This document shows, one piece after another, positions 1-52,606 of a DNA stretch of 64,000 bases; the first letter of the stretch is position 1; each line of letters opens with the position of its first letter. The DNA is from Minisyncoccota bacterium (GTDB taxonomy: Bacteria; Patescibacteriota; Minisyncoccia; Phycocordibacterales; UBA9973), in NCBI GenBank assembly GCA_035403785.1, contig DAONFW010000002.1, positions 12,676-76,675 on the forward strand, given 5' to 3'. Both the position numbers and the translations under genes were made by a program. The notes beneath the pieces were generated by a model, which was not told the DNA's origin, did not search any database, and worked only from the letters and a program-made list of their open reading frames with translations.

Positions 1-101
1 AAGAAGCAATTGAAATTTTCAAAAATAAAGGTTTCAAATTTGATAGAGAAATAGACGCAGGGGAACATCATTATGGTATTATATTAATAAAAGAAAAATA
101 A
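1..101 (+). CDS. 3' end of an upstream gene (partial, product unknown)
   Basis: Frame 3 is open from the window edge to TAA at 99-101 (...EAIEIFKNKGFKFDREIDAGEHHYGIILIKEK*). 33 residues are too few to assign a family. Confidence 0.3.
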   Translation, partial: EAIEIFKNKGFKFDREIDAGEHHYGIILIKEK

Positions 102-102
102 A

Positions 103-1407
103 ATGAAAGGTAATTTTCAAATAATAATTTTAGTAATCTTTGTAGCAGCAGCGGTTTTTGGACTTTTGGTTTTTTCTGGCACTATTCCGTTGGGCAACAA
201 AACCGACACGGCTGGTTCTTTGGGTACAGTTACTTTGTGGGGGACAGCCAAAGCAGACGCTCTAGCTGCTCCTATTGATGATTTCAATAGAGCAAATCCA
301 ACTTTTGTGGTTAAGTATGTTCAAAAAGATCCAGAAACTTTCGATCAGGATTTGCTTGAAGCAATGGCTTCAGGAGTTGGTCCGGATATGTTTTTCTTGC
401 CAGATAATTTAGTTTTTGATTATGCTAATAAAATTTATGTAATTCCTTATGAAAGCTATTCAGCCGCTTCTTTTCAAAATACTTTCAGTAGTGCAGGAGA
501 AGTATTTATGTTTTCAAAAGGAATTTTAGCTTTTCCGATTACAGTTGATCCACTAATGATGTATTACAACAGAAGTATGCTGGAATCTAATGGAATTATT
601 TATCCTCCAGCTACCTGGGATGATGTTGTGAGTTACACGGCTAGTTTAACCAAAAAAGATGAATTAAATAAAATCACAAAAAGTACAGTTGCCTTGGGTC
701 AATTTTCTAATGTAGCTCATGCAAAAGATATATTGTCTGCTTTGTTTATGCAAGCTGGCAATCAGATAATTACAGAAAAAGATGGCTCTTTTTCATCTGT
801 TCTTGGAGAAAGTGGAGCTAGCCAAATTAGCTTAGATACAATGCTTTCTTTCTTTACAAGCTTTTCTGATCCACTCAAGAATGTTTATTCCTGGAATCGA
901 TCTTTTGCAAATTCTAGAGATACTTTTAGTTCAGATAATTTAGCTTTTTATTTCGGTTATGCTAGTGAATTACAAACTTTAGTAAATAAAAATCCAAATC
1001 TTAACTTTGCTGTTGCTCCGTTTCCACAAATAAAAAATACTAATTTTAAATTGACTTCTGGAAAAGTTACAGGAATAGCTGTTTCTAACTTTTCAAAAAA
1101 TTTAAGCACAGCCCTTACTGCAGCTAGTCTGTTGGCAACGAGTGATTTTGCCTCGAAATATGCTGAAATAACACAAACTCCACCAGCTAGAAAAGATTTG
1201 CTCTCAAAAAAAATGACAGATGCTTATAATCCATATTTTTACTCGTCAGCTCTTTATGCTCGAAGTTGGTTAGATCCTTCTACTAATGATACTGATAATA
1301 TATTTAAAAATATGATTGAAGGAACGCTTTCTAATAATTTTACAGCGCAAGATGCTATCAGAGATGCCGGCGCGAAAATAAATCTTTTATTAATGAAATA
1401 TAGATAA
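103..1407 (+). CDS. ABC-transporter extracellular solute-binding protein (family 1-like)
   Basis: 434-aa ORF with an N-terminal hydrophobic anchor/signal (IIILVIFVAAAVFGLLVF). Length and composition are typical of periplasmic/lipoprotein solute-binding proteins. No permease or ATPase partner is visible in the window. Confidence 0.5.
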   Translation: MKGNFQIIILVIFVAAAVFGLLVFSGTIPLGNKTDTAGSLGTVTLWGTAKADALAAPIDDFNRANPTFVVKYVQKDPETFDQDLLEAMASGVGPDMFFLPDNLVFDYANKIYVIPYESYSAASFQNTFSSAGEVFMFSKGILAFPITVDPLMMYYNRSMLESNGIIYPPATWDDVVSYTASLTKKDELNKITKSTVALGQFSNVAHAKDILSALFMQAGNQIITEKDGSFSSVLGESGASQISLDTMLSFFTSFSDPLKNVYSWNRSFANSRDTFSSDNLAFYFGYASELQTLVNKNPNLNFAVAPFPQIKNTNFKLTSGKVTGIAVSNFSKNLSTALTAASLLATSDFASKYAEITQTPPARKDLLSKKMTDAYNPYFYSSALYARSWLDPSTNDTDNIFKNMIEGTLSNNFTAQDAIRDAGAKINLLLMKYR

Positions 1408-1439
1408 TTATAAATTTAAATTAAGTTTAGAGATTTAGT

Positions 1440-1835
1440 ATGAAAATTTTAAACAAACAAAATAAAAAAAATACATTTTTTGTTACCGGAACTTTTTTGT
1501 TACTTGTGCCAATTATTTCTTTTGGAGCAGGGCTTGTTCCATGTGGTGGTCAGGGAGAGAGTGAATGTAATTTTAATTTTCTTTTAATTTTAATTAATAA
1601 TATAGTTAAGTTTGTTTTATTTAGGTTAGCTGTTCCAATAGCTGCGATTATGTTTGCTTACGCTGGTATTTTACTTCTGACTTCTGGTGGCAATACATCA
1701 CAAAAAGAAAAATCAAAAAAAATATTTACTGGTGTGGCAATAGGTATTGTAATAGCCGCAGCTGCTTGGATTATCGTTCACTTGATTGTTTCTGTTTTGG
1801 GCTGTGGAGATAGCTGCAGTTGGATTGGTTTTTAA
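1440..1835 (+). CDS. TrbC/VirB2-like pilin-type small membrane protein (paralog 1 of 5)
   Basis: 131 aa. N-terminal signal/TM, a Cys-containing segment (PCGGQGESEC), then two hydrophobic helices separated by a short basic loop (SQKEKSKK). This is the conjugative-pilin (VirB2/TrbC) topology. First gene of a tandem array of similar genes. Confidence 0.5.
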   Translation: MKILNKQNKKNTFFVTGTFLLLVPIISFGAGLVPCGGQGESECNFNFLLILINNIVKFVLFRLAVPIAAIMFAYAGILLLTSGGNTSQKEKSKKIFTGVAIGIVIAAAAWIIVHLIVSVLGCGDSCSWIGF

Positions 1836-1854
1836 TAATTAGTATAATAAAAAT

Positions 1855-2262
1855 ATGAAATCTATAATAAAAAATTTTTTTGCGGTTACTTTAGCGGCTT
1901 TTGTTCTTTTTGCTCCAATTTTATCTTTTGCGCAGCAGACGGGAGATTTGTCAGGTGGTAGCCAGACAGGAGATTTATCTCCTTCTACCACCACGATTAA
2001 TAATCCAATAGGAGTCAGTGATGTTAATAGTTTTATCAGAGTGATTTTGGTTGGCGTTGTTAAAATTGGAATACCAATAGTCGCTTTGGCTATTATTTAT
2101 TCTGGTTTTCTTTTTGTAACAGCTAGAGGAAATCCTGAAGCTCTTAAAAAAGCAAAAAGTGCTTTCTTATATACAGTTATCGGTGCAGCTATTTTGTTGG
2201 GTTCTTGGGCAATTGCTCAGTTAATATCTAGTACAGTTTTAGAAATAGGTAAAAGTGTTTAA
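1855..2262 (+). CDS. TrbC/VirB2-like pilin-type small membrane protein (paralog 2)
   Basis: 135 aa. Signal peptide ending in AQQ, then two hydrophobic helices (VILVGVVKIGIPIVALAIIYSGFLF / LYTVIGAAILLGSWAIAQL) flanking the charged loop ARGNPEALKKAKS. Confidence 0.5.
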   Translation: MKSIIKNFFAVTLAAFVLFAPILSFAQQTGDLSGGSQTGDLSPSTTTINNPIGVSDVNSFIRVILVGVVKIGIPIVALAIIYSGFLFVTARGNPEALKKAKSAFLYTVIGAAILLGSWAIAQLISSTVLEIGKSV

Positions 2263-2273
2263 TAGATAAAAAA

Positions 2274-3005
2274 ATGAAAAACAATTTTTCTAATAAAATA
2301 TTATTGTGTATAATTCTTTCAGCTTTTTTTGTGCCATGTTTATCTTTTGCTCAGAATTCTGGTTTTCAGGCACAAGTTCAAGTCGCTCCGAATTATAATT
2401 ATTCTGGTTCAATTACAGGGGTACAAGCAGATGTGACTCAAGGAGAAGAATCATCTCTTGGTGGTGATATAAATGTTACAAATAATGCATCTGCTACGGC
2501 ACAAGCTCAGGGCGAAGTAGTTGGTGTTTCCGCTAGGTATAACACCAGCATCTCAAGTGGATTTACCTGTGCTTTGCCTAATAATCCAGTATTGAAAGAT
2601 TTGATAAATTATGCAACATGTTTGCTTTCAAAATCCATTGTTCCACTTATTTTTGGTGCAGCTATGGTTTTGTTTATCTGGGGCGTTGTTCAGTATGTTA
2701 TTGGAACAGACGATGAAACAAAAAAGAAAAAAGGAAAAACTTTTATGATTTGGGGTCTTGTTTCTTTAGCCGTAATGACTTCTGTTTGGGGTTTGGTTCG
2801 TATTTTGGGTAATACTTTTGGAGTAAATACAACGGTGATTCCTCAACTTAATACACAAAAATCTGCCAATACTGGTAATAGTATATATGAAGCCCCAGAA
2901 CAAACTGCTCCGTCTTTTTCCAGTGAGATTCAAACAATGCCTACTTTACCTGCGGGACAAATTCAGACAACAAACAGCTCTTTTTCAGGTCAAATAAGAC
3001 AATAA
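2274..3005 (+). CDS. TrbC/VirB2-like pilin-type protein with N- and C-terminal extensions (paralog 3)
   Basis: 243 aa. Signal peptide, Cys pair (FTCALPN...YATCLL), and the core IWGVVQYVIGTDDETKKKKGKTFMIWGLV shared almost verbatim with paralogs 4 and 5. There is a Ser/Thr/Gln-rich C-terminal tail. Confidence 0.5.
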   Translation: MKNNFSNKILLCIILSAFFVPCLSFAQNSGFQAQVQVAPNYNYSGSITGVQADVTQGEESSLGGDINVTNNASATAQAQGEVVGVSARYNTSISSGFTCALPNNPVLKDLINYATCLLSKSIVPLIFGAAMVLFIWGVVQYVIGTDDETKKKKGKTFMIWGLVSLAVMTSVWGLVRILGNTFGVNTTVIPQLNTQKSANTGNSIYEAPEQTAPSFSSEIQTMPTLPAGQIQTTNSSFSGQIRQ

Positions 3006-3250
3006 ACTATTTGCTTTTAAGCTCAGTATGTTATAATTAATAGGTGCTTAATTATTTAGGCAAGTTATAAATTATTATTAGGTCGCTAATTATTATAAAT
3101 TATTTCAGCTAAGATTAGCTGATTCGTTATTAACGGAAAAAATATGAATCCCGTTAGAAGTTAACTTTCGGGAATCGTAATTTTTAAAAATAAAATAAGT
3201 TGTCTAGCATATTTTGTAAGTAAAGTAAGTTAGTATAACTTCTAAACGGG

Positions 3251-3640
3251 ATGAAAAAGAAATTAATTACATTATTTAGTTTTGTTCTTGGTTTTGCTCC
3301 ATTAGCATTGTTTGCTCAACAGCAAGTAGGTAATGCTTCAGGATGTGCGGGTGTTGAGAGTGGAACTCTTCAGTCAGTAATTTGTACTGTTGGAAATGTT
3401 CTAGATACTCTTATTCCAATTCTTATAGTGTTGGGTATTGTGTATTTCGTATGGGGCGTTGTTCAGTATGTTATTGGTGACGATGAAGAAGCAAAAAAGA
3501 AAGGGAAAAATAGAATGATTTATGGAATCATTGGTCTAGTTGTAATCGTTGCAATGTGGGGTCTAGTTGGAATTATCACAAAGACTTTCGGTTTGAGTGG
3601 AACAACAAACGTTACTATTCCAACTCTTCCAATAAACTAA
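3251..3640 (+). CDS. TrbC/VirB2-like pilin-type small membrane protein (paralog 4)
   Basis: 129 aa. Signal peptide, Cys pair, and the core VWGVVQYVIGDDEEAKKKGKNRMIYGIIGLV between two hydrophobic helices. Preceded by a 245-bp AT-rich leader. Confidence 0.55.
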   Translation: MKKKLITLFSFVLGFAPLALFAQQQVGNASGCAGVESGTLQSVICTVGNVLDTLIPILIVLGIVYFVWGVVQYVIGDDEEAKKKGKNRMIYGIIGLVVIVAMWGLVGIITKTFGLSGTTNVTIPTLPIN

Positions 3641-3649
3641 ATATTTATT

Positions 3650-3994
3650 ATGATAGATTTGTTTTTACCAAATATTGCGTATGCTAGTGTAGACACATTT
3701 ATTGCCAAGGTTAATGAGGTAATTATTAATCCGCTTATCTTGTTGATGTTTGCATTAGCTTTAGTTTTCTTCTTTTATGGAATAGTAGAATTTCTTGCAA
3801 ATCCAGAAAGTGACGAGAAGAAGACAAAAGGTAAAAGCCATATGATTTGGGGAATAGTTGGTATTACGATTATGATGGGAGTATGGTTTATTATGCATCT
3901 TGTTATGAATACTCTAAATATAGAAGGAATTAATCCGGAAAAAGGAGAAGTGAAACTAAATGAGTATGCTCCAAATTATAATTGGAATCCTTAA
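3650..3994 (+). CDS. TrbC/VirB2-like pilin-type small membrane protein, short-leader variant (paralog 5)
   Basis: 114 aa. Only a 12-aa N-terminal leader (MIDLFLPNIAYA) before the conserved core (...FYGIVEFLANPESDEKKTKGKSHMIWGIVGI...). The ATG lies 9 nt after the stop of paralog 4. Confidence 0.5.
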   Translation: MIDLFLPNIAYASVDTFIAKVNEVIINPLILLMFALALVFFFYGIVEFLANPESDEKKTKGKSHMIWGIVGITIMMGVWFIMHLVMNTLNIEGINPEKGEVKLNEYAPNYNWNP

Positions 3995-4026
3995 AAACTA
4001 AAAACAAATTTTTAAATAAGAAATTT

Positions 4027-4060
4027 AAAAAGGCGATCCACATCCATGAATCGCCTTTTG
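4027..4060. terminator. Bidirectional rho-independent terminator hairpin
   Basis: AAAAGGCGAT-(12 nt loop)-ATCGCCTTTT: a 10-bp stem with an A-run 5' and a T-run 3'. It sits between convergent genes ending at 3994 (+) and 4068 (-). Confidence 0.5.
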
Positions 4061-4067
4061 AGTTACC

Positions 4068-4463
4068 TCATTTATTTATTTTGTATACAACGACCCGAAC
4101 ATGAGGTTTATTCGGATTAGCAGATTTGATACTAACTGTTCCTCCTTTTGCACCGGCAGGAGTGCCGGGGTTGTCCTTTCCGTCAAAGAAAAATTCTTCT
4201 GAGACACCTGTAAATTTTTCATAGACAGGTTCCCCAAAAGTTTCAAGCCGGAACTTGAAGTTAATGACAGGATCACATGGTGTAAAACCATCGAATACAA
4301 TGATTTCAGTTCCTGTGCTGTTTTCGGAATATTGCTCTGTCTGGTCGGTTGCTTTTTTATCATTTGAATTATCTTTTTTATCAAAAGATTTTACCCAGAA
4401 AATAAAAAGAAACGCCATTACAAGAATGATAACTAGACGAATAATTTTTACAGTATTTTTCAT
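4068..4463 (-). CDS. Small membrane-anchored protein co-transcribed with the SPFH gene (possible NfeD-like partner)
   Basis: 131 aa with an N-terminal TM (IIRLVIILVMAFLFIFWV) and a beta-rich C-terminal half. Its start overlaps the stop of the upstream SPFH gene by 1 nt. The NfeD assignment rests on gene context only. Confidence 0.4.
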   Translation of the reverse strand: MKNTVKIIRLVIILVMAFLFIFWVKSFDKKDNSNDKKATDQTEQYSENSTGTEIIVFDGFTPCDPVINFKFRLETFGEPVYEKFTGVSEEFFFDGKDNPGTPAGAKGGTVSIKSANPNKPHVRVVVYKINK

Positions 4464-5365
4464 TATTTTTTTCCTCCAAATTTTTCAATGAGTAAAGTAA
4501 TTGCTTTTACCACTTCAGGTGAAATTTCAATTCCCTCGAGATTTAGTTTTGCTTCGCCTCCAAGCACGATTTCTTTTATTTCTTTTGTTAGACTAATATC
4601 TTTGTCTAACAAAGGAGCGAGAGTTCGTGCTTCTTTATCTGAGTACCCAGCTTTTTTTAAAGTTTCCACCATTTCTTTTACGGCATTTGCTTTAGAAGCG
4701 GCATTTCTTGCACGTTGAACTTCTTCATTATAATCAACGTCTTTTATAGGGCATTCAATGACAATAATAGAAAGCTCTTTAGCAACTTCATCGAAGTCCT
4801 TTTTTTTAAGGATTTGTTCATGAGTGAAACTTTTTACATTAGTGCAAGTTTCATCTTTTACTTTTTCCCTGATGGTTTTTTCAGCAACAGCTGTTTGCAT
4901 GCTGTTAATTGCTTCTTGTGTGTACCTTACATAATTGATCATTCTTTCTGATCTTTTCTTTTCTGATGCTCCCGCAGCAGAATCAGGTTTTGACATGATT
5001 GCTGCTTCGATTTCCATACTGCCATCAATCGTTGGAAAAGTTCCACGTACTTTCGCGTGTATGATTGCTTCAAGGTTTACAATGAATTCGATTGATTCCC
5101 ACGGTAATTTAAAATAGAAGCCTTCGAACACAGCACGCCTTTTTTTAGTGAAATAATTTAATAAGACGTGACAGTCGTTCATCTTAACGTTTCCGACAAA
5201 AGAATTGAGACTGATTAAGGAAACGAAAAGGAATACAATAGTCCCAGGAAGTAAATATGCTTCTGAAGTAACAAGCAGAATTAAGAGCTGAATAACAGCC
5301 CATATGGCAGTTAGTGTTACGAACAACCAAAAACTTGCCGAACCGGAGGTTGAAATTTTTTCCAT
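4463..5365 (-). CDS. SPFH/band-7 (stomatin/prohibitin/HflC-like) membrane protein
   Basis: 300 aa. N-terminal TM followed by an SPFH-like core (KLPWESIEFIVNLEAIIHAKVRGTFPTIDG...) and a coiled-coil/Ala-Lys-rich C-terminus. Confidence 0.65.
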   Translation of the reverse strand: MEKISTSGSASFWLFVTLTAIWAVIQLLILLVTSEAYLLPGTIVFLFVSLISLNSFVGNVKMNDCHVLLNYFTKKRRAVFEGFYFKLPWESIEFIVNLEAIIHAKVRGTFPTIDGSMEIEAAIMSKPDSAAGASEKKRSERMINYVRYTQEAINSMQTAVAEKTIREKVKDETCTNVKSFTHEQILKKKDFDEVAKELSIIVIECPIKDVDYNEEVQRARNAASKANAVKEMVETLKKAGYSDKEARTLAPLLDKDISLTKEIKEIVLGGEAKLNLEGIEISPEVVKAITLLIEKFGGKK

Positions 5366-5393
5366 TTTTTTTGTTTTTTAAATTATTAATTAT

Positions 5394-5473
5394 TGTTTGA
5401 TTTGTTTGTTCCAATTGCTAATCTATTTTATTTTTTAAGAGAGGGGATTAGCGACAAAAACAAACAAATCAAG
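5394..5473. promoter_or_regulatory. Nested AT-rich inverted repeats in the SPFH gene leader
   Basis: Outer arms TTGATTTGTTTGTT (5397-5410) and AACAAACAAATCAA (5459-5472). Inner arms GCTAATC (5417-5423) and GATTAGC (5446-5452). Located 30-110 bp upstream of the minus-strand start at 5365. Confidence 0.3.
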
Positions 5474-5533
5474 ATAACTAATAACTTGTTTTTCAAGTAT
5501 CAAATTCTACATAAAGTATATCACAAATAATAC

Positions 5534-5563
5534 AAAAAGTCAACCCTATTGGGCTGACTTTTT
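5534..5563 (-). terminator. Terminator hairpin downstream of the surface-protein gene
   Basis: AAAAAGTCAACCC-TATT-GGGCTGACTTTTT: a stem with one mismatch. On the minus strand it is followed by a T-run. Confidence 0.45.
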
Positions 5564-5581
5564 GTATTATTTGTAAAGGTT

Positions 5582-6352
5582 TTAGGCGTGTTTCAGTGGT
5601 TGTGCCTTGTATTTTTCACCTGCGTGAGTAAGCTTTCTCCAAACTATTACTATTAGTAATACTAAGATTATTAGTAGCAACCATCCTAGAAAACTTGTTG
5701 GCAAGAAACTGTCTGAAGAGAATAGGGCATTAGCTGCTAAATTACTATCAGTATCTTCATCTGTTGTTTCTGACACACAAGCTGGTGTGGTTGTTGTTTT
5801 TGGTTTTGCAGTTGAACTTGGTTTTGGCTTGCTTGTAGTTGTAGCTGAAGTGGTTGGTGCTTTCTTGAGTGTGTAATATGCTGTGTTTGAAAGTCCACCA
5901 TTTGAAGTGTGATTGTATACAGTGATTGATTGTGAGCCTAAACCTGTCATATCAGCATCTGTTGTGTGCATGATAATTTGGCTAGAACTTACATAACTTG
6001 TATTTCTATCACTACCATTCCATCTAGCTACAGAGCCTGGGATAAAGTTATAACCGTTAATTGTTATATCTTTAGCGCCTGTTTTGGTGATTCCTGAAGT
6101 TGGACTAATTGAAGTAATGTGTGGAACCAAACTCGTATTCTGGGTGTTATTAGTATTATTGTTTGTATTACCACTATTATTATTACTGTTGTTATTTCCA
6201 GAGTTATCATTATTCCAATGATCAAATTCAGTATTTGCACCGAAGTCAACTGTAACTGTTCTTGCTGAAACTGTGTTAGTTAAAGAAAAGCTTAACACTA
6301 ACGCAAAGATGGCGAAAATCAATATTAAGTTTTTGTTTAATAATTTTTTCAT
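5582..6352 (-). CDS. Cell-surface protein with Asn-rich low-complexity region, Thr/Ser/Pro-rich stalk and C-terminal membrane anchor (possible sortase-type sorting signal)
   Basis: 256 aa. Signal peptide, NNDNSGNNNSNNNSGNTNNNTNNTQNT, an Ig-like middle region, a TTSATTTSKPKPSSTAKPKTTTTP stalk, then LPTSF + hydrophobic helix + WRK near the C-terminus. Confidence 0.45.
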   Translation of the reverse strand: MKKLLNKNLILIFAIFALVLSFSLTNTVSARTVTVDFGANTEFDHWNNDNSGNNNSNNNSGNTNNNTNNTQNTSLVPHITSISPTSGITKTGAKDITINGYNFIPGSVARWNGSDRNTSYVSSSQIIMHTTDADMTGLGSQSITVYNHTSNGGLSNTAYYTLKKAPTTSATTTSKPKPSSTAKPKTTTTPACVSETTDEDTDSNLAANALFSSDSFLPTSFLGWLLLIILVLLIVIVWRKLTHAGEKYKAQPLKHA

Positions 6353-6419
6353 ACTAAGAGTATATCATAAACAAAATTATTTGTCAAGTAGTTTTTTACC
6401 TTATAAAATAAGGATTTTG

Positions 6420-6503
6420 TGCCGGGAGGGAGACTTGAACTCCCATGAGATTTCTCTCGCTTGCTCCTAAGGCAAGTGCGTCTGCCAATTTCGCCATCCC
6501 GGC
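6420..6503 (-). tRNA. tRNA-Leu(TAG)
   Basis: Cloverleaf read by eye on the reverse complement: acceptor GCCGGGA/TCCCGGC, anticodon loop CTTAGGA, long variable arm, T-loop GGGAGTTCAAGTCTCCC. Confidence 0.85.
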
Positions 6504-6551
6504 TTATTCTCTATTATAAATCAAAAACTTAATAAAATAAATCTTTAATTT

Positions 6552-6626
6552 GTCCGCCCAGTAGGGATCGAACCTACGACCTTACGCTTAAGAGGCGTCT
6601 GCTCTACCAGCTGAGCTATGGGCGGA
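6552..6626 (-). tRNA. tRNA-Lys(CTT)
   Basis: Reverse complement TCCGCCCATAGCTCAGCTGGTAGAGCAGACGCCTCTTAAGCGT...GGTTCGATCCCTACTGGGCGGA. Anticodon loop CTCTTAA. Confidence 0.85.
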
Positions 6627-6643
6627 TTAAATATTTAATTGTG

Positions 6644-6725
6644 TGCCCGAGGTGGGGGTCGAACCCACATCCCTTGCGAGACACGATTTTAAGTCGTGCG
6701 CGTATACCAATTCCGCCACTCGGGC
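6644..6725 (-). tRNA. tRNA-Leu(TAA)
   Basis: Reverse complement GCCCGAGTGGCGGAATTGGTA...CACGACTTAAAATCGTG...GGGTTCGACCCCCACCTCGGGCA. Anticodon TAA, long variable arm. Confidence 0.85.
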
Positions 6726-6795
6726 TTCCAAACTAACTCTTATATTATAAACATTTTTTTATAAAATACAATCCAAAACACACTTTCTGTCTACT

Positions 6796-6869
6796 GAGGC
6801 CTGGGCCGGAATTGAACCGGCGTATGGAGATTTTGCAGATCTCTGCCTTACCACTTGGCTACCAGGCCT
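6796..6869 (-). tRNA. tRNA-Cys(GCA)
   Basis: Reverse complement AGGCCTGGTAGCCAAGTGGTAAGGCAGAGATCTGCAAAATCTCCATACGCCGGTTCAATTCCGGCCCAGGCCT. Anticodon loop CTGCAAA. Confidence 0.85.
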
Positions 6870-6890
6870 TATTTTTATTCTAACTTAATA

Positions 6891-7214
6891 TTACTTTTCT
6901 CTTAATAATTCGTCAATTTTTTGTCTATTCTTTTCTCCAGTATCTATTTCAAAATCTATAAACGGAATTAATTTAGACTTCATATTTTTTTTCAAAAAAT
7001 CTCTAAATTCCGCTCGTTTTCTTTTTGTAAAATCTAGAGCACTTTTTTCTTTTGAAGCAGGCAAGACTGTAATAAAAATAGTAGCTCTCTTCAAATCAGA
7101 AGACGCATGACAGTCGGTAACTGTTACAAGGGAAGTCCTGTTACTTTCTTTGCTCAAAAAACGAGCCGCAAGCTCTTTTATCAAATTTGATACTTTTTCT
7201 TTTCTTTCAGCCAT
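6891..7214 (-). CDS. rbfA: Ribosome-binding factor A
   Basis: 107 aa, KH-like RbfA signature region (KRATIFITVLP...). Immediately downstream of infB, which is the canonical infB-rbfA arrangement. Confidence 0.7.
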   Translation of the reverse strand: MAERKEKVSNLIKELAARFLSKESNRTSLVTVTDCHASSDLKRATIFITVLPASKEKSALDFTKRKRAEFRDFLKKNMKSKLIPFIDFEIDTGEKNRQKIDELLREK

Positions 7215-8716
7215 TATTTTTTAACAATAGAAAATGATTCTATTACATCTCCCGGTGCGATTTCTATCTTTGATTCGAGCATCATTCCGAATTCAGCCCC
7301 TTCTTCAACCTCAGAAGTTTTTGATTTATTTTTTTCCAGATTTACGATTTTTCCTTTGCCAATTTCATTTTCACGACGTATTATTTTTACCGTGCTATTT
7401 AGCGCGATTCTGCCTTCTATCACTTTTCCTCCAAGAACCTGTTTTTCCTTTGTTTTACTGAAAGCTTTTAAAATTTTCGCTTTTCCTGTAATTTCTACTG
7501 TTTCTATTTTTGGTCTGCGGTTTTCCATTTCTTCTTCTAACCATTCAGTCATTTTGTAAATAATTTGGAAGAAAGAAATAGTAATACCTCTTGTTTCAGC
7601 TAGCTCAGTTGCATTTCTGTCAGCTTTTACATTAAAGCCTATTACAATGGCATTTTCACAAGAAGCAACAGACTTTATATCTGATTCTGAAATAGGCCCC
7701 ACTCCTTTTTGTACTATTCTGAATTCAGCGCTTTCGCTTGTTATTTTATTAATTTCTTTTTCGATTGCCTCTATTGAACCAAGCACATCAGCTTTTAAAA
7801 CTATTGGTATAATTTTTTTGTCAGAATTTTCAGCAACATTTTTATCGCAAATTATATTTGCTTTGAAATTTTCCGCATATTCTTCTGCGTCTCTCTTTTT
7901 TTCAAAAGACTTAAATTCTGCACCAACATTTGGCATTTTACTAAAACCAGTTAGCCTGATAGGGGAAGAGAAAGTCGCTTCGTTTATAGGTTTACCAAGA
8001 AAATTTTCCATTATACGAGTGGCACAAACTGAGTCTTCTACAACCACCGTCATGCCTTTTTTAAGAGTTCCATTTTTTATAACCAAAGAAGCTTGAATTC
8101 CTCTTTTTGGATCAAGGTTTGTTTCTATTACAGAACCAGAAGCTGTTTCGTTTGGATTACCAGTGAAATTTTCCATTTCAGCAAGAATAAGAATCAAAGA
8201 AAGTAAATTTTCAACGCCAGTTCCTTGTTTGGCTGATATTTCAGCAAATGGAATTTTTCCTCCAAAATTTTCTAGGTAAATTTCATTTTCAGCTAATTCG
8301 ATTTTTGTTTTTTCAACATTAGCGCCCGGTTTGTCTATTTTATTAATAGCGACGATGCATGGAGTTTTGCTTGCTTCGATGGTTTTCCAAGCTTCAATTG
8401 TCTGTGGTTTAACGCCGTCTTCTGCTGAAACTATTAAAATAGCGATATCTGCGACATTCGCACCACGTTCTCGCATTTTGGAAAAAGCGGCATGCCCTGG
8501 AGTATCTAAAAAAGTTATTCTTTTTTCTTCTCCTTTTTCATCTTTGTGGACAACCTCATACGCAGAAATACGTTGGGTTATTCCTCCAGCTTCTTGTTCA
8601 ACGACATTTGTTTTTCGAATATAATCGAGCAAAGTGGACTTACCATGGTCAATGTGTCCCATCACTACAACTATTGGCGGTCGTTCTGTATTCTGTTGTT
8701 TTTTCTTCTTGTCCAT
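7214..8716 (-). CDS. infB: Translation initiation factor IF-2 (minimal form lacking the N-terminal region)
   Basis: 500 aa. The G domain starts at residue ~14 (VVVMGHIDHGKSTLLD, DTPGH, NKID), followed by the IF-2 beta-barrel and C-terminal domains. Confidence 0.9.
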   Translation of the reverse strand: MDKKKKQQNTERPPIVVVMGHIDHGKSTLLDYIRKTNVVEQEAGGITQRISAYEVVHKDEKGEEKRITFLDTPGHAAFSKMRERGANVADIAILIVSAEDGVKPQTIEAWKTIEASKTPCIVAINKIDKPGANVEKTKIELAENEIYLENFGGKIPFAEISAKQGTGVENLLSLILILAEMENFTGNPNETASGSVIETNLDPKRGIQASLVIKNGTLKKGMTVVVEDSVCATRIMENFLGKPINEATFSSPIRLTGFSKMPNVGAEFKSFEKKRDAEEYAENFKANIICDKNVAENSDKKIIPIVLKADVLGSIEAIEKEINKITSESAEFRIVQKGVGPISESDIKSVASCENAIVIGFNVKADRNATELAETRGITISFFQIIYKMTEWLEEEMENRRPKIETVEITGKAKILKAFSKTKEKQVLGGKVIEGRIALNSTVKIIRRENEIGKGKIVNLEKNKSKTSEVEEGAEFGMMLESKIEIAPGDVIESFSIVKK

Positions 8717-8740
8717 CTTTTTAAAAAATTAAAAACTTTT

Positions 8741-9199
8741 TTATTTTACTTCTGCTTTATTTAGAGCCTCTTTTTCTTCTTCAGATAATTCATATTCTGA
8801 TTTTCCGTTTTTGATTGGTTTAGCAAAAATACTCATTCTTTCTCTAGAATATAAACTAGAAATTACGACGCCGTCTTTTTCTTCGTTTAGAATCCCAATA
8901 GCAAAACTTTGGTTACTGCCTTGGTCTGGAAAAGGATTAAATCTTATTGTTTCAACTCCACGAATGCTTTTCTTTAATTTTTTATTAACAACTACTAATT
9001 CTTTTTCAGCTGCCTCTTTTGCTATTTTTAATACAGCTATATCTTTCTCTAAAATGTTAATAGTATCTTCTAAATCTTTAGCTTTTTTACCCATGAAGAA
9101 TTTTTTTAGACGTCTTTCTGTTTTGACAATCCAAAACAATTCCACTAAAATGGCAATTCCAGCAAAAACAAAAAAAGCGATTTGGAGCTTTATATTCAT
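8741..9199 (-). CDS. Hypothetical membrane protein with coiled-coil segment
   Basis: 152 aa. N-terminal TM (IAFFVFAGIAILVELFWIV), then a Lys/Glu-rich helical region. Confidence 0.4.
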   Translation of the reverse strand: MNIKLQIAFFVFAGIAILVELFWIVKTERRLKKFFMGKKAKDLEDTINILEKDIAVLKIAKEAAEKELVVVNKKLKKSIRGVETIRFNPFPDQGSNQSFAIGILNEEKDGVVISSLYSRERMSIFAKPIKNGKSEYELSEEEKEALNKAEVK

Positions 9200-9223
9200 A
9201 CTGATTCAATATATACTATTTTT

Positions 9224-10423
9224 ATGGAAAAATCAAAGAAAATTTATCTAGATAATGCTTCTGCCACACCAATAGACAATCGGGTTCTTTCTGTTATGAC
9301 AAAAATAAGCAAAGAAATTTTTGCCAACGCTAGCGCGATTCACGATTTGGGCATAACTGCAAAGAATAAATTAGAACAAGCAAGAAAAGAAATCGCTACT
9401 ATTTTAAATGCGCATACTGATGAAATAATTTTTACCTCAGGTTCTACTGAATCAAATAATTTGGCAATCAGAGGAATTTTAGAAATTTTGAAAAATAGCA
9501 CAGTAGAAAAAGATTTTATTCCTCATATTATTACAACAAACATAGAGCACGCTTCTGTTTTGGAAGTTTGCAAATATTTAGAAAAAAACAAAAAAGCTGA
9601 ACTTACTTATGTGCCAGTTGAATCAAATGGAATTATAGAGCCAAAGAAAATGAGGAAAGCCTTGAGATCTAACACGGTTTTGGTTTCTGTAATGTATGCA
9701 AACAATGAAATAGGCACTGTTCAGCCAATCCAAGAAATAGCAAAAGAAATCAGATATTTTAACAAAGTAAATAATAAAAAAGTTTTACTTCATACAGATG
9801 CAACGCAGGCTGTAAATTATTTGTTACTTAATGTTGAAAAATTAGGGGTAGACTTAATGTCTTTTAATTCTGGAAAAATTTATGGACCAAAAGGTGTTGG
9901 AGTTTTGTTTATAAAAAGAAGAACAGAAATTGGCCCAATTCTTTTTGGAGGAGAGCAGGAATTTAATTTTCGACCGGGGACTGAAAATTTAGTAAACATA
10001 GTTGGTTTGGCAGAAGCATTAAAAATCACAGAAAAAATAAAAGAGAAAGAAATTAGAAGACTAATTAGTTTGAGAGATTATTTTATTGGAAAACTTTTAG
10101 AATTAAGTGCTGATTTAAAAATAAATATAAACATAAATGGTGATTTGAAAAATAGACTGGCTAATAACGTAAATATAACTATTCCAAAAATTCCAAGCGA
10201 ACTTTTGGTGTTAGAATTATCAGCTAGGGGAATTTATGTTTCAGAAAAAAGTGCTTGTAAATCTGGTGACAAAAAGAGTTCGCACGTTATTCGGGCTATT
10301 ACAGGAAAAAATATTGGTAGTGTCAGATTTTCTTTAGGCAGACAGACAAAAAAAGAGGACTTAGATTATGCAATTAAAGCTTTAAGTCAAATTTTGAAAA
10401 AACTAGAAAAATGGTATTATTAG
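9224..10423 (+). CDS. Cysteine desulfurase (class V aminotransferase, IscS/NifS family)
   Basis: The ORF opens at 9182, but the likely start is Met15 (MEKSKKIYLDNASATP). Typical NifS N-terminus, with the PLP-lysine region later (SFNSGKIYGPKGVG). Confidence 0.8.
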   Translation: MEKSKKIYLDNASATPIDNRVLSVMTKISKEIFANASAIHDLGITAKNKLEQARKEIATILNAHTDEIIFTSGSTESNNLAIRGILEILKNSTVEKDFIPHIITTNIEHASVLEVCKYLEKNKKAELTYVPVESNGIIEPKKMRKALRSNTVLVSVMYANNEIGTVQPIQEIAKEIRYFNKVNNKKVLLHTDATQAVNYLLLNVEKLGVDLMSFNSGKIYGPKGVGVLFIKRRTEIGPILFGGEQEFNFRPGTENLVNIVGLAEALKITEKIKEKEIRRLISLRDYFIGKLLELSADLKINININGDLKNRLANNVNITIPKIPSELLVLELSARGIYVSEKSACKSGDKKSSHVIRAITGKNIGSVRFSLGRQTKKEDLDYAIKALSQILKKLEKWYY

Positions 10424-40916: not shown

Positions 40917-41153
40917 ATGAAAAAAGTAGAAATTTATTCAACTCCGTCTTGTCATTTTTGTCACATGGCAAAAGATTTTTTTGCTGCAAATGGTGTAGCT
41001 TATACAGAATATAATGTTGCTGCTGATTTAGAAAAGAGAAAAGAAATGATGGAATTAACAGGACAAATGGGGGTTCCAGTAATTGTTATAGATGGTGATT
41101 GGATTGTTGGTTTTAATAAAGTAGATATTGCTAAAAAGTTGGGATTTATATAG
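40917..41153 (+). CDS. Glutaredoxin-family small redox protein (CxxC)
   Basis: 78 aa. VEIYSTPSCHFCHMAKDFF ... GVPVIVIDGDWIVGF, a thioredoxin-fold Grx/NrdH pattern. Confidence 0.65.
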   Translation: MKKVEIYSTPSCHFCHMAKDFFAANGVAYTEYNVAADLEKRKEMMELTGQMGVPVIVIDGDWIVGFNKVDIAKKLGFI

Positions 41154-41297
41154 TCTGTTTTATTTTGGTCACAGATAATTTCTCGCCGTCGCTCGAAATT
41201 TCCGCGACCCCGCCTCGCTGTTTTGTCAGTTGACAAAACATGCTCCGGCTCACAAATCGCCCGCAGGCAAATCAGTTTGCCTGCTTTACTCGATTTG

Positions 41298-41369
41298 TGC
41301 CCCCACTCCGAATCGAACGGGGATCTATTCCTTAGGACGGAACTGTTCTATCCATTGAACTATGGGGGC
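41298..41369 (-). tRNA. tRNA-Arg(CCT)
   Basis: Reverse complement GCCCCCATAGTTCAATGGATAGAACAGTTCCGTCCTAAGGAATAGATCCCCGTTCGATTCGGAGTGGGGGCA. Anticodon loop GTCCTAA. Confidence 0.8.
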
Positions 41370-49631: not shown

Positions 49632-49847
49632 ATGAAAATAAAAATAAGTAAGCAAGTTGGAAATAAAGAAAAGTTTCAACTTGAAGAAAAACTTTTTTCT
49701 TTGTACGACCAGCGTTCCTCTTTGAGAAGGAAGATGAGAAGGGCAAAAGATAAATGCTGTTTCAAAAACAAACTAAAAAAAGTAAACAGTCAGATTCAAA
49801 ATCTGACCAAAAAAATTTTAATTCTTTCGACAACAAAAGCCGACTAA
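49632..49847 (+). CDS. Hypothetical small basic protein
   Basis: 71 aa, Lys/Arg-rich. Strong RBS AAGGAGGG 6 nt upstream of the ATG. Followed by a canonical terminator. Confidence 0.4.
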   Translation: MKIKISKQVGNKEKFQLEEKLFSLYDQRSSLRRKMRRAKDKCCFKNKLKKVNSQIQNLTKKILILSTTKAD

Positions 49848-49860
49848 TGTCGGCTTTTGT
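49834..49860 (+). terminator. Rho-independent terminator
   Basis: CAAAAGCCGAC-TAAT-GTCGGCTTTTG followed by TTATTTG. Confidence 0.6.
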
Positions 49861-49865
49861 TATTT

Positions 49866-49968
49866 GTGAGCCTTCTCGAGATAGAACCAATGCGATTCCT
49901 TACCCCGTAATGTTATTTTTAATGTTTTCAGTATAACATTTTGACCCTTCTCGTGAGATTGTAAAAAC
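49866..49968. repeat. Repeat copy A (~103 bp) of a two-copy element flanking the HD-hydrolase gene
   Basis: GTGAGCCTTCTCGAGATAGAACCA...TTTTCAG...GACCCTTCTCGTGAGATTGTAAAAACC. It contains two palindromic TCTCGNGAGA motifs (49874-49881, 49949-49958) and aligns at roughly 70% identity with copy B at 50688-50792. Confidence 0.6.
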
Positions 49969-49970
49969 CA

Positions 49971-50621
49971 TTATTGACAATCCCATTCCTTTTTAAATTT
50001 ATTTAAAAACAACTCCATAAATTCATGCCTTTCTTTAGCTATTTCTTTAGCTGTATCTGTATGCATTAAATCTTTTAATAAAAGTAGTTTTTCATAAAAA
50101 TGATTAATCGTAGTGCTTTTGTTGTTTTTATATTGTTCAGATGTTGTATGAAATTCTGGTTTAATATCAGGATTATATATTTCTCTATTTTTGCTTCCTC
50201 CGTAGGCAAATGCTCGTGCAATACCTATTGCACCGATAGCATCAAGTCTATCAGCATCTTGTAATATCTTACCCTCTAGTGTATTTATTTTATTTTCTAC
50301 ACCAGCCCCCTTGAAAGAACTATTAGCAATAATCTCACACACTTGATCAATTATTTCTTTATCAACAGATAGAGACTCAAGCCAATCTCTAGAGATTTTT
50401 GACCCAATTTCTTCATCACCATCATTAAACTTCCAATCAGCAATATCATGAAGAAGAGCAGATAATTCGACAACAAAAGAATTTGCTTTTTCTTTTTCTG
50501 CTATATTTTTTGCATTTTTCCATACTCTATAAACATGCCACCAATCATGACCAGTTCCTTCACCAGATAATTTCGATTTTGTGTATTCAATAGTCTTTTG
50601 TATTATTTCTTCTTTATTCAT
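49971..50621 (-). CDS. HD-domain metal-dependent phosphohydrolase
   Basis: 216 aa. H...HD...D pattern (GHDWWHVYRV ... LLHDIAD ... LQDADRLDAIGA). Confidence 0.75.
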   Translation of the reverse strand: MNKEEIIQKTIEYTKSKLSGEGTGHDWWHVYRVWKNAKNIAEKEKANSFVVELSALLHDIADWKFNDGDEEIGSKISRDWLESLSVDKEIIDQVCEIIANSSFKGAGVENKINTLEGKILQDADRLDAIGAIGIARAFAYGGSKNREIYNPDIKPEFHTTSEQYKNNKSTTINHFYEKLLLLKDLMHTDTAKEIAKERHEFMELFLNKFKKEWDCQ

Positions 50622-50635
50622 AATTTAATTGTATC

Positions 50636-50663
50636 ACTAAAACTCCCAAATTGGGAGTTTTTA
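50636..50663. other. Hairpin with plus-strand T-run inside the minus-strand HD gene leader
   Basis: AAAACTCCCAA-AT-TTGGGAGTTTTT. It reads as a plus-strand terminator although no plus-strand gene precedes it. Confidence 0.4.
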
Positions 50664-50687
50664 TGCTTCTCGTGCTAGCTCTAAAAG

Positions 50688-50792
50688 GTGAGCCCAGTCG
50701 AGATGCGACCATACGGTTCATTACCCTATAAGGTTTATTCCAAATCCTTAACATTTTCAGAACGACCCTTCTCGGGAGACTATAAAAAGTGA
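50688..50792. repeat. Repeat copy B (~105 bp)
   Basis: GTGAGCCCAGTCGAGATGCGACCA...TTTTCAG AACGACCCTTCTCGGGAGACTATAAAAAGTG. TCTCGGGAGA lies at 50770-50779. A related fragment, TGCTTCTCGTGC, lies at 50664-50675. Confidence 0.6.
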
Positions 50793-50869
50793 CAAAAGTG
50801 ACACAGAATAGCATGTAAATGTTACAGATAGTTATAACATTCCTTTTAATAATAAGGTTATAAAAACCC

Positions 50870-50897
50870 TTGACTTTTCTACAAAAAGTTTTATACT
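50870..50897 (+). promoter_or_regulatory. Near-consensus sigma70-type promoter upstream of the 51017 gene
   Basis: TTGACT-N16-TATACT read directly, about 120 bp upstream of the ATG. Confidence 0.4.
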
Positions 50898-51016
50898 ATA
50901 TACCATAAAATGTTCCTTAAAATATGGATTTTTAAGTAGTTAAATTGTTTATTTAAGCTTCTATTAATCAGGAAGTTTTAATAAACAATTTAATATTTAT
51001 CTTAAAAACTCCAGAA

Positions 51017-52504: not shown

Positions 52505-52535
52505 TATTTCTAATTTCCACAATCTCTCTTTAGGT

Positions 52536-52606
52536 GACCCTACCGGGAATCGAACCCGGATTACCGGCTTGAAAAGCCGATGTCCTAACCGTTAGACGAT
52601 AGGGCC
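52536..52606 (-). tRNA. tRNA-Glu(TTC)
   Basis: Reverse complement GGCCCTATCGTCTAACGGTTAGGACATCGGCTTTTCAAGCCGGTAATCCGGGTTCGATTCCCGGTAGGGTCA. Anticodon loop TTTTCAA. Confidence 0.8.

Follow-up and report, generated by a model that had tools for sequence, protein, structure and literature searches.

Within the 64-kb window analyzed here (64,000 nucleotides of contig DAONFW010000002.1 from a Minisyncoccota bacterium), a minus-strand gene encoding an HD-domain phosphohydrolase is flanked by two diverged direct repeats, copies A and B. On balance, these repeats are best read as att-type junction repeats of gene cassettes that accreted at a tRNA-Glu gene, with the HD gene as one such cassette. Both copies appear to be old, diverged members of a family of ~100–140-bp boundary elements (E) in Paceibacteria of the candidate phyla radiation (CPR), an assignment that rests on two named records; most contigs carrying the family are short. 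This reading builds on the demonstrated family membership of both repeats, the architecture of the arrays, their anchoring at tRNA-Glu genes, the 3′ end and tail shared by elements and tRNA genes, and one case of cassette gain or loss.

A first-pass annotation of the window had placed the repeats at 49866–49968 (A) and 50688–50792 (B), in the same orientation on either side of the HD gene (49971–50621), and these positions are correct. A blastn search with copy B against the window aligned it with copy A (109 columns, 67.9% identity, E = 1.3e-4) and returned no third copy within the 64 kb. The modest pairwise E-value and the low G+C content of the window (32.6%) would be in keeping with ordinary diverged promoter or terminator regions that resemble each other by chance in AT-rich DNA. 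However, an independent nhmmer model, constructed without the window sequence from 43 members found in other metagenomes, matches the window only at 49959–49866 (minus strand, E = 6.8e-24) and 50782–50687 (minus strand, E = 3.8e-18), and ~63 copies are scattered across many metagenomes, which refutes chance likeness and leaves it a negligible probability. The minus-strand alignment of A and B identifies the minus strand as the functional strand of the repeat unit and extends the unit beyond the limits originally given: upstream, the likeness reaches TTTTTAyArT-CTCnCGAGAAGGGTC; downstream, it extends to a hairpin and T-run, with stems that differ between the copies (GCCGAC/GTCGGC versus CTCCCA/TGGGAG). 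Judged from its sequence, each copy is a minus-strand unit closed by a terminator-like hairpin. The hairpin at 50636–50663, originally described as a plus-strand structure with a T-run, does exist, but it is reinterpreted here as the minus-strand terminator that closes unit B.

An exact-pattern scan of metagenome contigs from the Joint Genome Institute (JGI) returned 69 loci, ~47 of which are genuine members of the family, and a scan of species-representative genomes added one further copy in a Paceibacteria metagenome-assembled genome (L015). By nhmmer, ~63 distinct copies of E are present in 47 loci, mostly with one co-oriented gene between copies. The search pattern forced two conserved blocks, so that the limits of the family are biased; features that were not forced comprise C8, C10, T54, T55, GTTCTATC, G.TCAC, the direct repeat described below, and a −10-like box. 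Over the unforced columns, the identity between A and B is 0.54, compared with a family median of 0.59, and the nearest relatives of the two copies are located in other genomes (in L042 for A, 0.79; in L038 for B, 0.69). Because each copy is closer to those relatives than to its partner and the A/B identity lies below the family median, A and B are not the product of a (recent) local duplication. Contigs identical to this region were found in several digester metagenomes.

Read in the minus-strand orientation of the window, the consensus often begins with a direct repeat (TGTCACTTTTGTCAC; DR), followed by TTTTTATAG, nCnCnCGAGAAGGGTC, a stretch of 37 nt in most members (36–38 nt), GGGTAAnGAA, a short hairpin, and GGTTCTATCnnGAGAAGGCTCAC(C). 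The element opens with C.CGAGAAGGGTC, identical to the right part of the tail located downstream of tRNA-Glu genes (the 5′ block nCnCACGAGAAGGGTC equals this right part), and closes with a mimic of the tRNA-Glu 3′ end (GGTTCTATC...AGGsTCACC), to which another tail is attached. The module has sharp borders: pairwise megablast of all loci revealed many pairs that are alike at 87–99% over DR and E alone and have unrelated flanks (e.g., L022/L025, 99.2%; L040/L050, 96.8%).

The anchoring at tRNA genes is evident from ARAGORN predictions for all loci. A co-oriented tRNA-Glu gene lies 0.4–4.2 kb upstream of the element in nine loci (L017, L036, L057, L058, L063, L064, L079, L083, and the window), which means that the window and eight other loci possess an intact target tRNA gene at the end of the island, co-oriented with the repeat. 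The anchor of L062 and L070 is a tRNA-Lys gene, and their elements end in CGGGGCAC, like tRNA-Lys (GGGGGCAC); all tRNA-Glu-linked elements end in sTCAC(C), like tRNA-Glu (GGTCACC). Several tail variants are common to tRNA-Glu genes and elements (TTCAACAGCTAGCACGAG..; TTTTAGAGAGCGCTC.AGAAG; GAGAGCCAGTTCGAGCACTCGAGAAGG; or CAC plus a long hairpin), and the motif C[AT]CGAGAAG is present in the 45 nt that follow six of eight tRNA-Glu genes and one of three tRNA-Lys genes but none of 18 other tRNA genes.

Two or three copies of E are present in each of 13 loci, which yields 16 intervals of 337–2814 bp between elements. Neighboring elements are co-oriented in all 16 pairs, as are 21 of the 27 open reading frames (ORFs) between them; most intervals contain a single co-oriented gene, and in 10 of the 16 intervals, the distance from the end of the last ORF to the following element is −3 to +22 nt. 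Co-oriented repeats after single ORFs are also expected of classical integrons with attC sites or of selfish repeats resembling miniature inverted-repeat transposable elements (MITEs) or repetitive extragenic palindromic (REP) sequences. Such an origin is highly improbable for E, which lacks a conserved hairpin on either strand and the R″/R′ cores of attC sites, has no IntI-type integrase among the proteins scanned, and is not bordered by terminal inverted repeats; because copies from the same genome resemble each other less than those from different genomes do, recent bursts of transposition are unlikely.

The cargo of the arrays is heterogeneous. Pfam matches include HD (three times), HD_3/YfbR, NUDIX, HAD, His_Phos, Metallophos, IMPase, CutA, TauE, UbiA, a response regulator, and an OLD-family nuclease; about half of the cargo genes have no Pfam match. 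The genes up- and downstream of E fall into more than 30 unrelated Pfam families and do not form a coherent downstream gene set. Inspection by eye places an extended −10 box (TGnTAnnnT) 6–8 nt before the ATG of many cargo genes, which lack a Shine-Dalgarno sequence (the HD gene of the window and genes in L020, L024, L036, L050, L054, L073, and L083). These genes are probably leaderless units with their own promoters, the mRNA of the HD gene probably among them, which suggests that leaderless mRNAs are widespread in these organisms. By contrast, a strong AAGGAGGG site accompanies the small ORF at 49632.

The first-pass annotation had also considered that the repeats are att-like scars of a cassette that carries the HD gene. 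The interpretation as cassette and att-type repeats is favored by the arrays at tRNA-Glu, the shared 3′ end and tail, and the polymorphism described below, but the tie to the HD gene does not hold. HD homologs with 81–86% identity in other genomes are located in tight operons without an E element, and relatives of the neighboring 388-aa protein with 67–70% identity also lack E; because of these homologs, E is neither a leader of the HD gene nor linked to it, and both possibilities are ruled out. The HD protein itself shares 64–72% identity with hundreds of proteins of other Patescibacteria and of Bacteroidales/Bacteroidetes, an unusual cross-phylum conservation that would fit a horizontal spread of this cargo gene.

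Gain or loss of a cassette is documented by L036 and L057, which both begin with tRNA-Glu(UUC) and are 98.6–98.8% identical on both sides of an 855-nt difference. In L036, ATTAGTGCCAGCACGAGAACGC... comes after the tRNA 3′ end GGGTCACCA; in L057, the CCA of tRNA-Glu is directly followed by a second version of the tail, a promoter, a gene encoding a 275-aa protein, and an element ending in CTCTCACCA, and the tail that adjoins the tRNA gene in L036 appears only after this element. One cassette (tail, promoter, gene, and E) is present in L057 and absent from L036 exactly at the 3′ end of tRNA-Glu, and because the order of the tails shifts between the two loci, this is a single cassette whose borders are the ends of the tRNA and of the element. 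The extra unit of L057 is the one adjoining the tRNA gene, and the pair displays both the occupied and the empty site. The crossover appears to lie to the left of the tail, within or before TCACCA.

These observations suggest a mechanism in which E and its tail would constitute the att-type junction of small gene cassettes that insert successively at the 3′ end of tRNA-Glu. Recombination, which we infer to be site-specific, would take place between the tRNA end and its tail (attB-like) and the end of E with its tail on an excised cassette (attP-like), and every insertion would add one co-oriented E downstream. The enzyme would act in trans; a candidate is the large serine recombinase (Resolvase, Recombinase, and Zn_ribbon_recom domains) whose gene is located near the array, on the opposite strand, in L022, L025, L052, L056, and L070. 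The gene is upstream of and divergent from the array in L025, L052, and L070 and, judged by nucleotide similarity to that of L025, likewise in L022; the L056 gene is downstream of the element, and its called ORF overlaps a tRNA-Arg gene. The window contains a remnant with 65% identity to residues 1–52 of the recombinases of L070 and L025 (tblastn, E about 1e-16); the remaining ~390 codons are deleted, and the tRNA-Glu gene is only 43 nt away. Most single-gene units lack an integrase. Alternatively, cassettes might move by homology-driven recombination between the ~26-nt repeats. Past the third element of L032 (oriented positions 4369–4560), several partial motifs of tails or element starts (..CACTCGAGAAGCAT.., ..CTCTCGAGAAGGGTTAG.., ..CAGAAGGGTCACCATCAACAGCTAGCACGAGTAGGG..) look like nested or abortive junctions.

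Several observations weigh against an origin of A and B as cassette junctions. The body of E resembles the tRNA only weakly. Clear likeness is confined to the last ~10–24 nt: E shares the terminal sTCACC and the tail, and its last 24 nt match the tRNA-Glu 3′ end at 17 positions in the consensus and 14 in copy B. The 3′ half of E as a whole scores only modestly above shuffled sequences in Smith-Waterman alignments with tRNA-Glu, and scores with tRNA-Lys and tRNA-Arg are similar; support for the idea that this entire half is a recognizable copy of tRNA-Glu is therefore weak. The nhmmer model of E does not match the tRNA-Glu gene of the window. No tyrosine integrase was seen, although most neighboring ORFs were not scanned, and Pfam scans of the window neighbors and of recurrent neighbors elsewhere, which cover the neighborhood incompletely, detected no Phage_integrase domain. 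Large serine recombinases normally leave no long direct repeats. The difference between L036 and L057 could also be a deletion by ordinary homologous recombination, and the species represented by the window shows no cassette polymorphism, the layout being fixed in all seven contigs that carry the island. Moreover, E retains a −10 signature, a fixed 37-nt spacing, and frequent terminators, all of which are superfluous for a pure recombination scar.

The latter features would be in keeping with an E that acts mainly at the RNA level, as a multi-copy small RNA or a 3′-untranslated region (3′-UTR) module with its own extended −10 promoter and terminator; arrays and tRNA link would then be secondary. 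This view does not exclude a junction role but is unlikely as the principal explanation. In the family column profile, a classic TGnTAnnnT precedes an A-rich stretch (T29, 82%; A30, 89%; T34, 87%; TG, 76–78%), and E lies downstream of the stop codon of a co-oriented gene and upstream of a terminator-like hairpin, which is present within 110 nt downstream in 17 of 56 elements (30%, strict criteria) compared with 3 of 53 upstream control segments. A 5-bp hairpin (GAAyy/rGUUC) is paired in 85% of cells versus 20–58% when slid, with nine CG-to-UA double changes, and E is 53–69% identical where neighboring proteins are only 53–62% identical. However, copy B has no −10 box, and neither strand has a conserved fold: RNAalifold energies (−1.19 and 0.0 kcal/mol on the two strands) lie inside the column-shuffle range, single-copy fold energies are not unusual (z = −1.3 to +1.6), the covariation of the hairpin does not exceed that of shuffles, and a mutual-information scan mostly reflects subfamilies. 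A search of Rfam 15 yielded no match in the region at E ≤ 10; at gathering score, only tRNAs were detected in the window, and nothing in the window and 20 loci matched E. ARAGORN identified no tRNA in A or B. These results do not support the proposal that A and B represent a structured RNA present twice, which was rejected on the basis of RNAalifold on both strands with column shuffles, mutual information, and helix counts; a riboswitch or cis-regulatory leader is likewise not supported by these tests or by the incoherent downstream genes. An RNA-level role also leaves unexplained the anchoring at tRNA-Glu, the shared tail, the match between E subtype and tRNA type, and the difference between L036 and L057. 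A small ORF within E was rejected as well: on both strands, differences in loop length break every frame, and the one long frame of copy A is interrupted by stops in other copies (by eye).

A regulatory role at the DNA level is suggested by the conservation of DR, which occurs with ≤2 mismatches to the 15-mer in ~30 fetched loci from deeply diverged genomes, despite neighboring proteins that are only 53–62% identical. E and DR might together form a conserved promoter/operator module that controls flanking accessory genes, with DR as the site of a regulator (e.g., an S24 repressor) and the three C.CGAGAAGG repeats as further sites; we consider this improbable as the main function. DR occupies the −35 position for genes that start directly after it (nine loci), the 13-nt motif of the CGAGAAGG type occurs three times in a single orientation, and an S24 repressor gene is located near one array. 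Yet the motifs are not palindromic, an individual −10 box seems to adjoin the ATG of many cassette genes, a terminator often intervenes between E and the following gene, and no regulator gene recurs beside E; the mimic of the tRNA end and the gain or loss of cassettes would not be explained. DR has only one intergenic copy in the window, and a general promoter role of TGTCAC was rejected because the other near-match is CxxC coding sequence. By inspection, each GTCAC of DR resembles the tRNA-Glu terminus GGTCAC.

The palindromes noticed in the first-pass annotation are present in the window, with TCTCGAGA at 49874 and TCTCGNGAGA at 49949 and 50770 and no other site, but their interpretation as operators for a dimeric protein is not supported by the family. 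Among 45 members, the left half (TCTC) varies (ACTC, GCTC, ATGC, ACGC, and others), and only the right half, C.CGAGAAGGsTC, is invariant, which leaves no conserved dyad symmetry. The basic 71-aa protein encoded next to copy A, which had been proposed as the binder, has no homolog in any other fetched locus. An RNA or promoter/operator role may nevertheless coexist with the role of E as a cassette junction.

If A and B are cassette junctions, the island of the window can be laid out as follows (Table 1). In minus-strand order, it comprises tRNA-Glu, the tail remnant TAAAGAGAG, the recombinase remnant, the gene for the 388-aa protein, DR, element B with tail and terminator, the HD promoter and gene, and element A with its terminator. 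The tRNA-Glu gene is the proposed anchor of the array (attB side). The remnant TAAAGAGAG resembles, by eye, the left part of the tail TTTTAGAGAG... that is found after the tRNA-Glu gene of L083, the elements of L040, and copy B; the likeness stops abruptly and therefore marks a candidate junction. The tail of B includes a degenerate palindrome noted earlier at 50664, and the HD gene has no Shine-Dalgarno sequence (by eye).

Table 1. Features of the proposed cassette island in the window.
Feature	Position	Strand	Evidence and remarks
tRNA-Glu(UUC)	52533..52606	-	ARAGORN and Rfam; co-oriented with both elements; 3′ end GTAGGGTCACC
TAAAGAGAG directly 3′ of tRNA-Glu	52524..52532	-	Comparison by eye; candidate junction
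Large serine recombinase remnant, N-terminal 52 codons	52334..52489	+	tblastn; divergent from array
DR, direct repeat TGTCAC-TTT-TGTCAC (TGTCACTTTTGTCAC)	50789..50803	-	Immediately 5′ of element B
Element B (E_B): ATAG-TCTCC-CGAGAAGGGTC, 37 nt, GGGTAATGAA, then GGTCGCATCTCGACTGGGCTCACC	50687..50783	-	nhmmer (E = 3.8e-18) and alignment
Tail of B, TTTTAGAGCTAGCACGAGAAGCAT	50663..50686	-	Sequence class found after genuine tRNA-Glu genes
Intrinsic-terminator-like hairpin AAAACTCCCA-ATT-TGGGAGTTTT	50639..50662	-	Closes B unit
Putative extended −10 box TGATACAAT of HD gene	50628..50636	-	6 nt before ATG; by eye
HD-domain phosphohydrolase gene, 216 aa	49971..50621	-	PF01966, E = 5.9e-14; proposed cassette cargo
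Element A (E_A), ends in GGTTCTATCTCGAGAAGGCTCAC	49866..49962	-	nhmmer, E = 6.8e-24; begins 9 nt past HD stop codon
Internal extended −10-like box TGTTATACT of element A	49930-49938	-	Family column profile
Bidirectional terminator hairpin AACAAAAGCCGAC-ATTA-GTCGGCTTTTGTT	49832..49861	.	Common to element A and convergent 71-aa gene

The arrays resemble several known systems without matching any of them. Genomic islands at tRNA genes (tDNA islands) are bounded by a regenerated tRNA gene and a displaced fragment (PMC4383910). Like these islands, E arrays have an intact tRNA gene at one end and co-oriented copies of its 3′ end downstream, recombinase or phage-like genes near some arrays, heterogeneous cargo, and one polymorphism exactly at the tRNA 3′ end. 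However, E units are mostly single genes of 0.4–2.9 kb that themselves lack an integrase, the repeat is a conserved element of ~100–140 bp in which only the last ~10–24 nt mimic the tRNA rather than a near-identical displaced fragment, and the associated recombinase is of the serine and not the tyrosine type; E arrays fit the Islander definition of tDNA islands (PMC4383910) only in part. According to the accretion-mobilization model, cis-mobilizable elements (CIMEs) are att-bounded segments without integrase that depend on the recombinase of a neighboring element and form tandem arrays via site-specific integration (PMC5704250). E cassettes are likewise bounded by att-type repeats, lack an integrase, and would depend on the recombinase of a neighbor, but whereas CIMEs are usually decayed integrative and conjugative or integrative and mobilizable elements of several kilobases in Firmicutes (PMC5704250), E units in CPR bacteria consist of single genes that carry promoters, and genes for conjugation were not seen.

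With integrons and clusters of attC sites lacking integron-integrases (CALIN), E arrays have in common the co-oriented arrangement of mostly single-ORF cassettes, each followed by a site of ~60–140 bp, the position of the extra L057 cassette next to the anchor, and a divergent recombinase gene near some arrays. Unlike integrons, they lack the attC hairpin and GTTRRRY cores, are anchored at the 3′ end of a tRNA gene, contain many cassettes that seem to bear promoters, and yielded no IntI-type tyrosine recombinase. In archaeal tRNA gene capture, which was reportedly described by She et al. in 2001, serial direct repeats of tRNA 3′ segments are said to mark successive trapped integrations; that system reportedly involves a partitioning tyrosine integrase of archaea and no conserved extra-tRNA module of the E type.

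A more far-reaching and tentative proposal is that these arrays represent a gene-capture platform of Paceibacteria that is integron-like in its working but differently built, with the 3′ end and tail of tRNA-Glu or tRNA-Lys as insertion point, E elements of ~100 bp as cassette-borne sites, single promoter-bearing genes as cargo, and a large serine recombinase acting in trans. No account of such arrays in Patescibacteria was found in the searchable literature. The genomes of CPR bacteria are tiny, and how these organisms gain accessory genes is little understood. If the arrays are active, they would offer a compact, tRNA-anchored route for the acquisition of single genes that is independent of classical integrons, and the borders of DR, E, and tail would be handles for finding cassette pools in metagenomes and for testing the recombinase and its sites. 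Even if they are frozen, the family provides an annotation rule for hundreds of unexplained intergenic regions of Paceibacteria.

Features of mobile elements are found between the end of the recombinase gene and the array in L052, with parts in L015, L022, and L072; they comprise a LOOT RNA, a large terminase, a small-terminase-like helix-turn-helix (HTH) protein, an N6/N4 DNA methylase, an S24 repressor, and the gene pair of a cyclic-oligonucleotide-based antiphage signaling system (CBASS). The block in L052 (oriented positions 50–10336) resembles an integrative element and encodes the serine recombinase, a DUF4268 protein, Terminase_6C, the HTH protein, a homolog of the N6/N4 methylase (based on similarity to the L022 gene), the S24 repressor, and the CBASS pair (HNH-SAVED effector and SMODS cyclase). 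LOOT RNA (RF03000, 77–97 bits) occurs in L015 (1476–1603), L022 (1532–1653), and L072 (4855–4976), 3.3–3.8 kb upstream of the element on the same strand and beside the genes of the small-terminase-like HTH protein and the N6/N4 DNA methylase, and may be part of an integrative, phage-like element of Paceibacteria. Base pairing of E with LOOT RNA was rejected, as duplex energies are no better than those of shuffled sequences, and a search of IMG/VR for a phage origin of E itself gave no match.

A second conserved sequence is associated with another tRNA gene of the window. Domain D (~150 nt; 41150–41296, minus strand) directly follows tRNA-Arg(CCU) (41297–41369). At its start, the base of a long hairpin pairs with the 3′ end of the tRNA; ..CGAGGCGGGGTCGCGGAAATTTCGAGCGACGGCGAGAAA..TGTGACC comes next. 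Homologous sequences are located after E in L024 and L072 (E = 9e-15 and 5e-12); by eye, domain D is also related to the sequence after the tRNA-Glu gene of L017 and, more loosely, to sequences after E in about ten other loci. In related sequences of the L058 type, a short hairpin is changed on both sides (GACCAU/AUGGUC versus GAACCU/AGGUUC, by eye). Domain D has no Rfam match at E ≤ 0.1.

Upstream of the gene for the 388-aa protein, an inverted repeat with 22-nt arms (TTAAATTGTTTATTTAAGCTTC / GAAGTTTTAATAAACAATTTAA; 50940–50993, plus strand) is located between a canonical promoter (TTGACT-N16-TATACT) and the start codon. Promoter and hairpin are both retained in L004 and L005, where the protein is 67–70% identical, and the inverted repeat is possibly a regulatory hairpin in the 5′-UTR.

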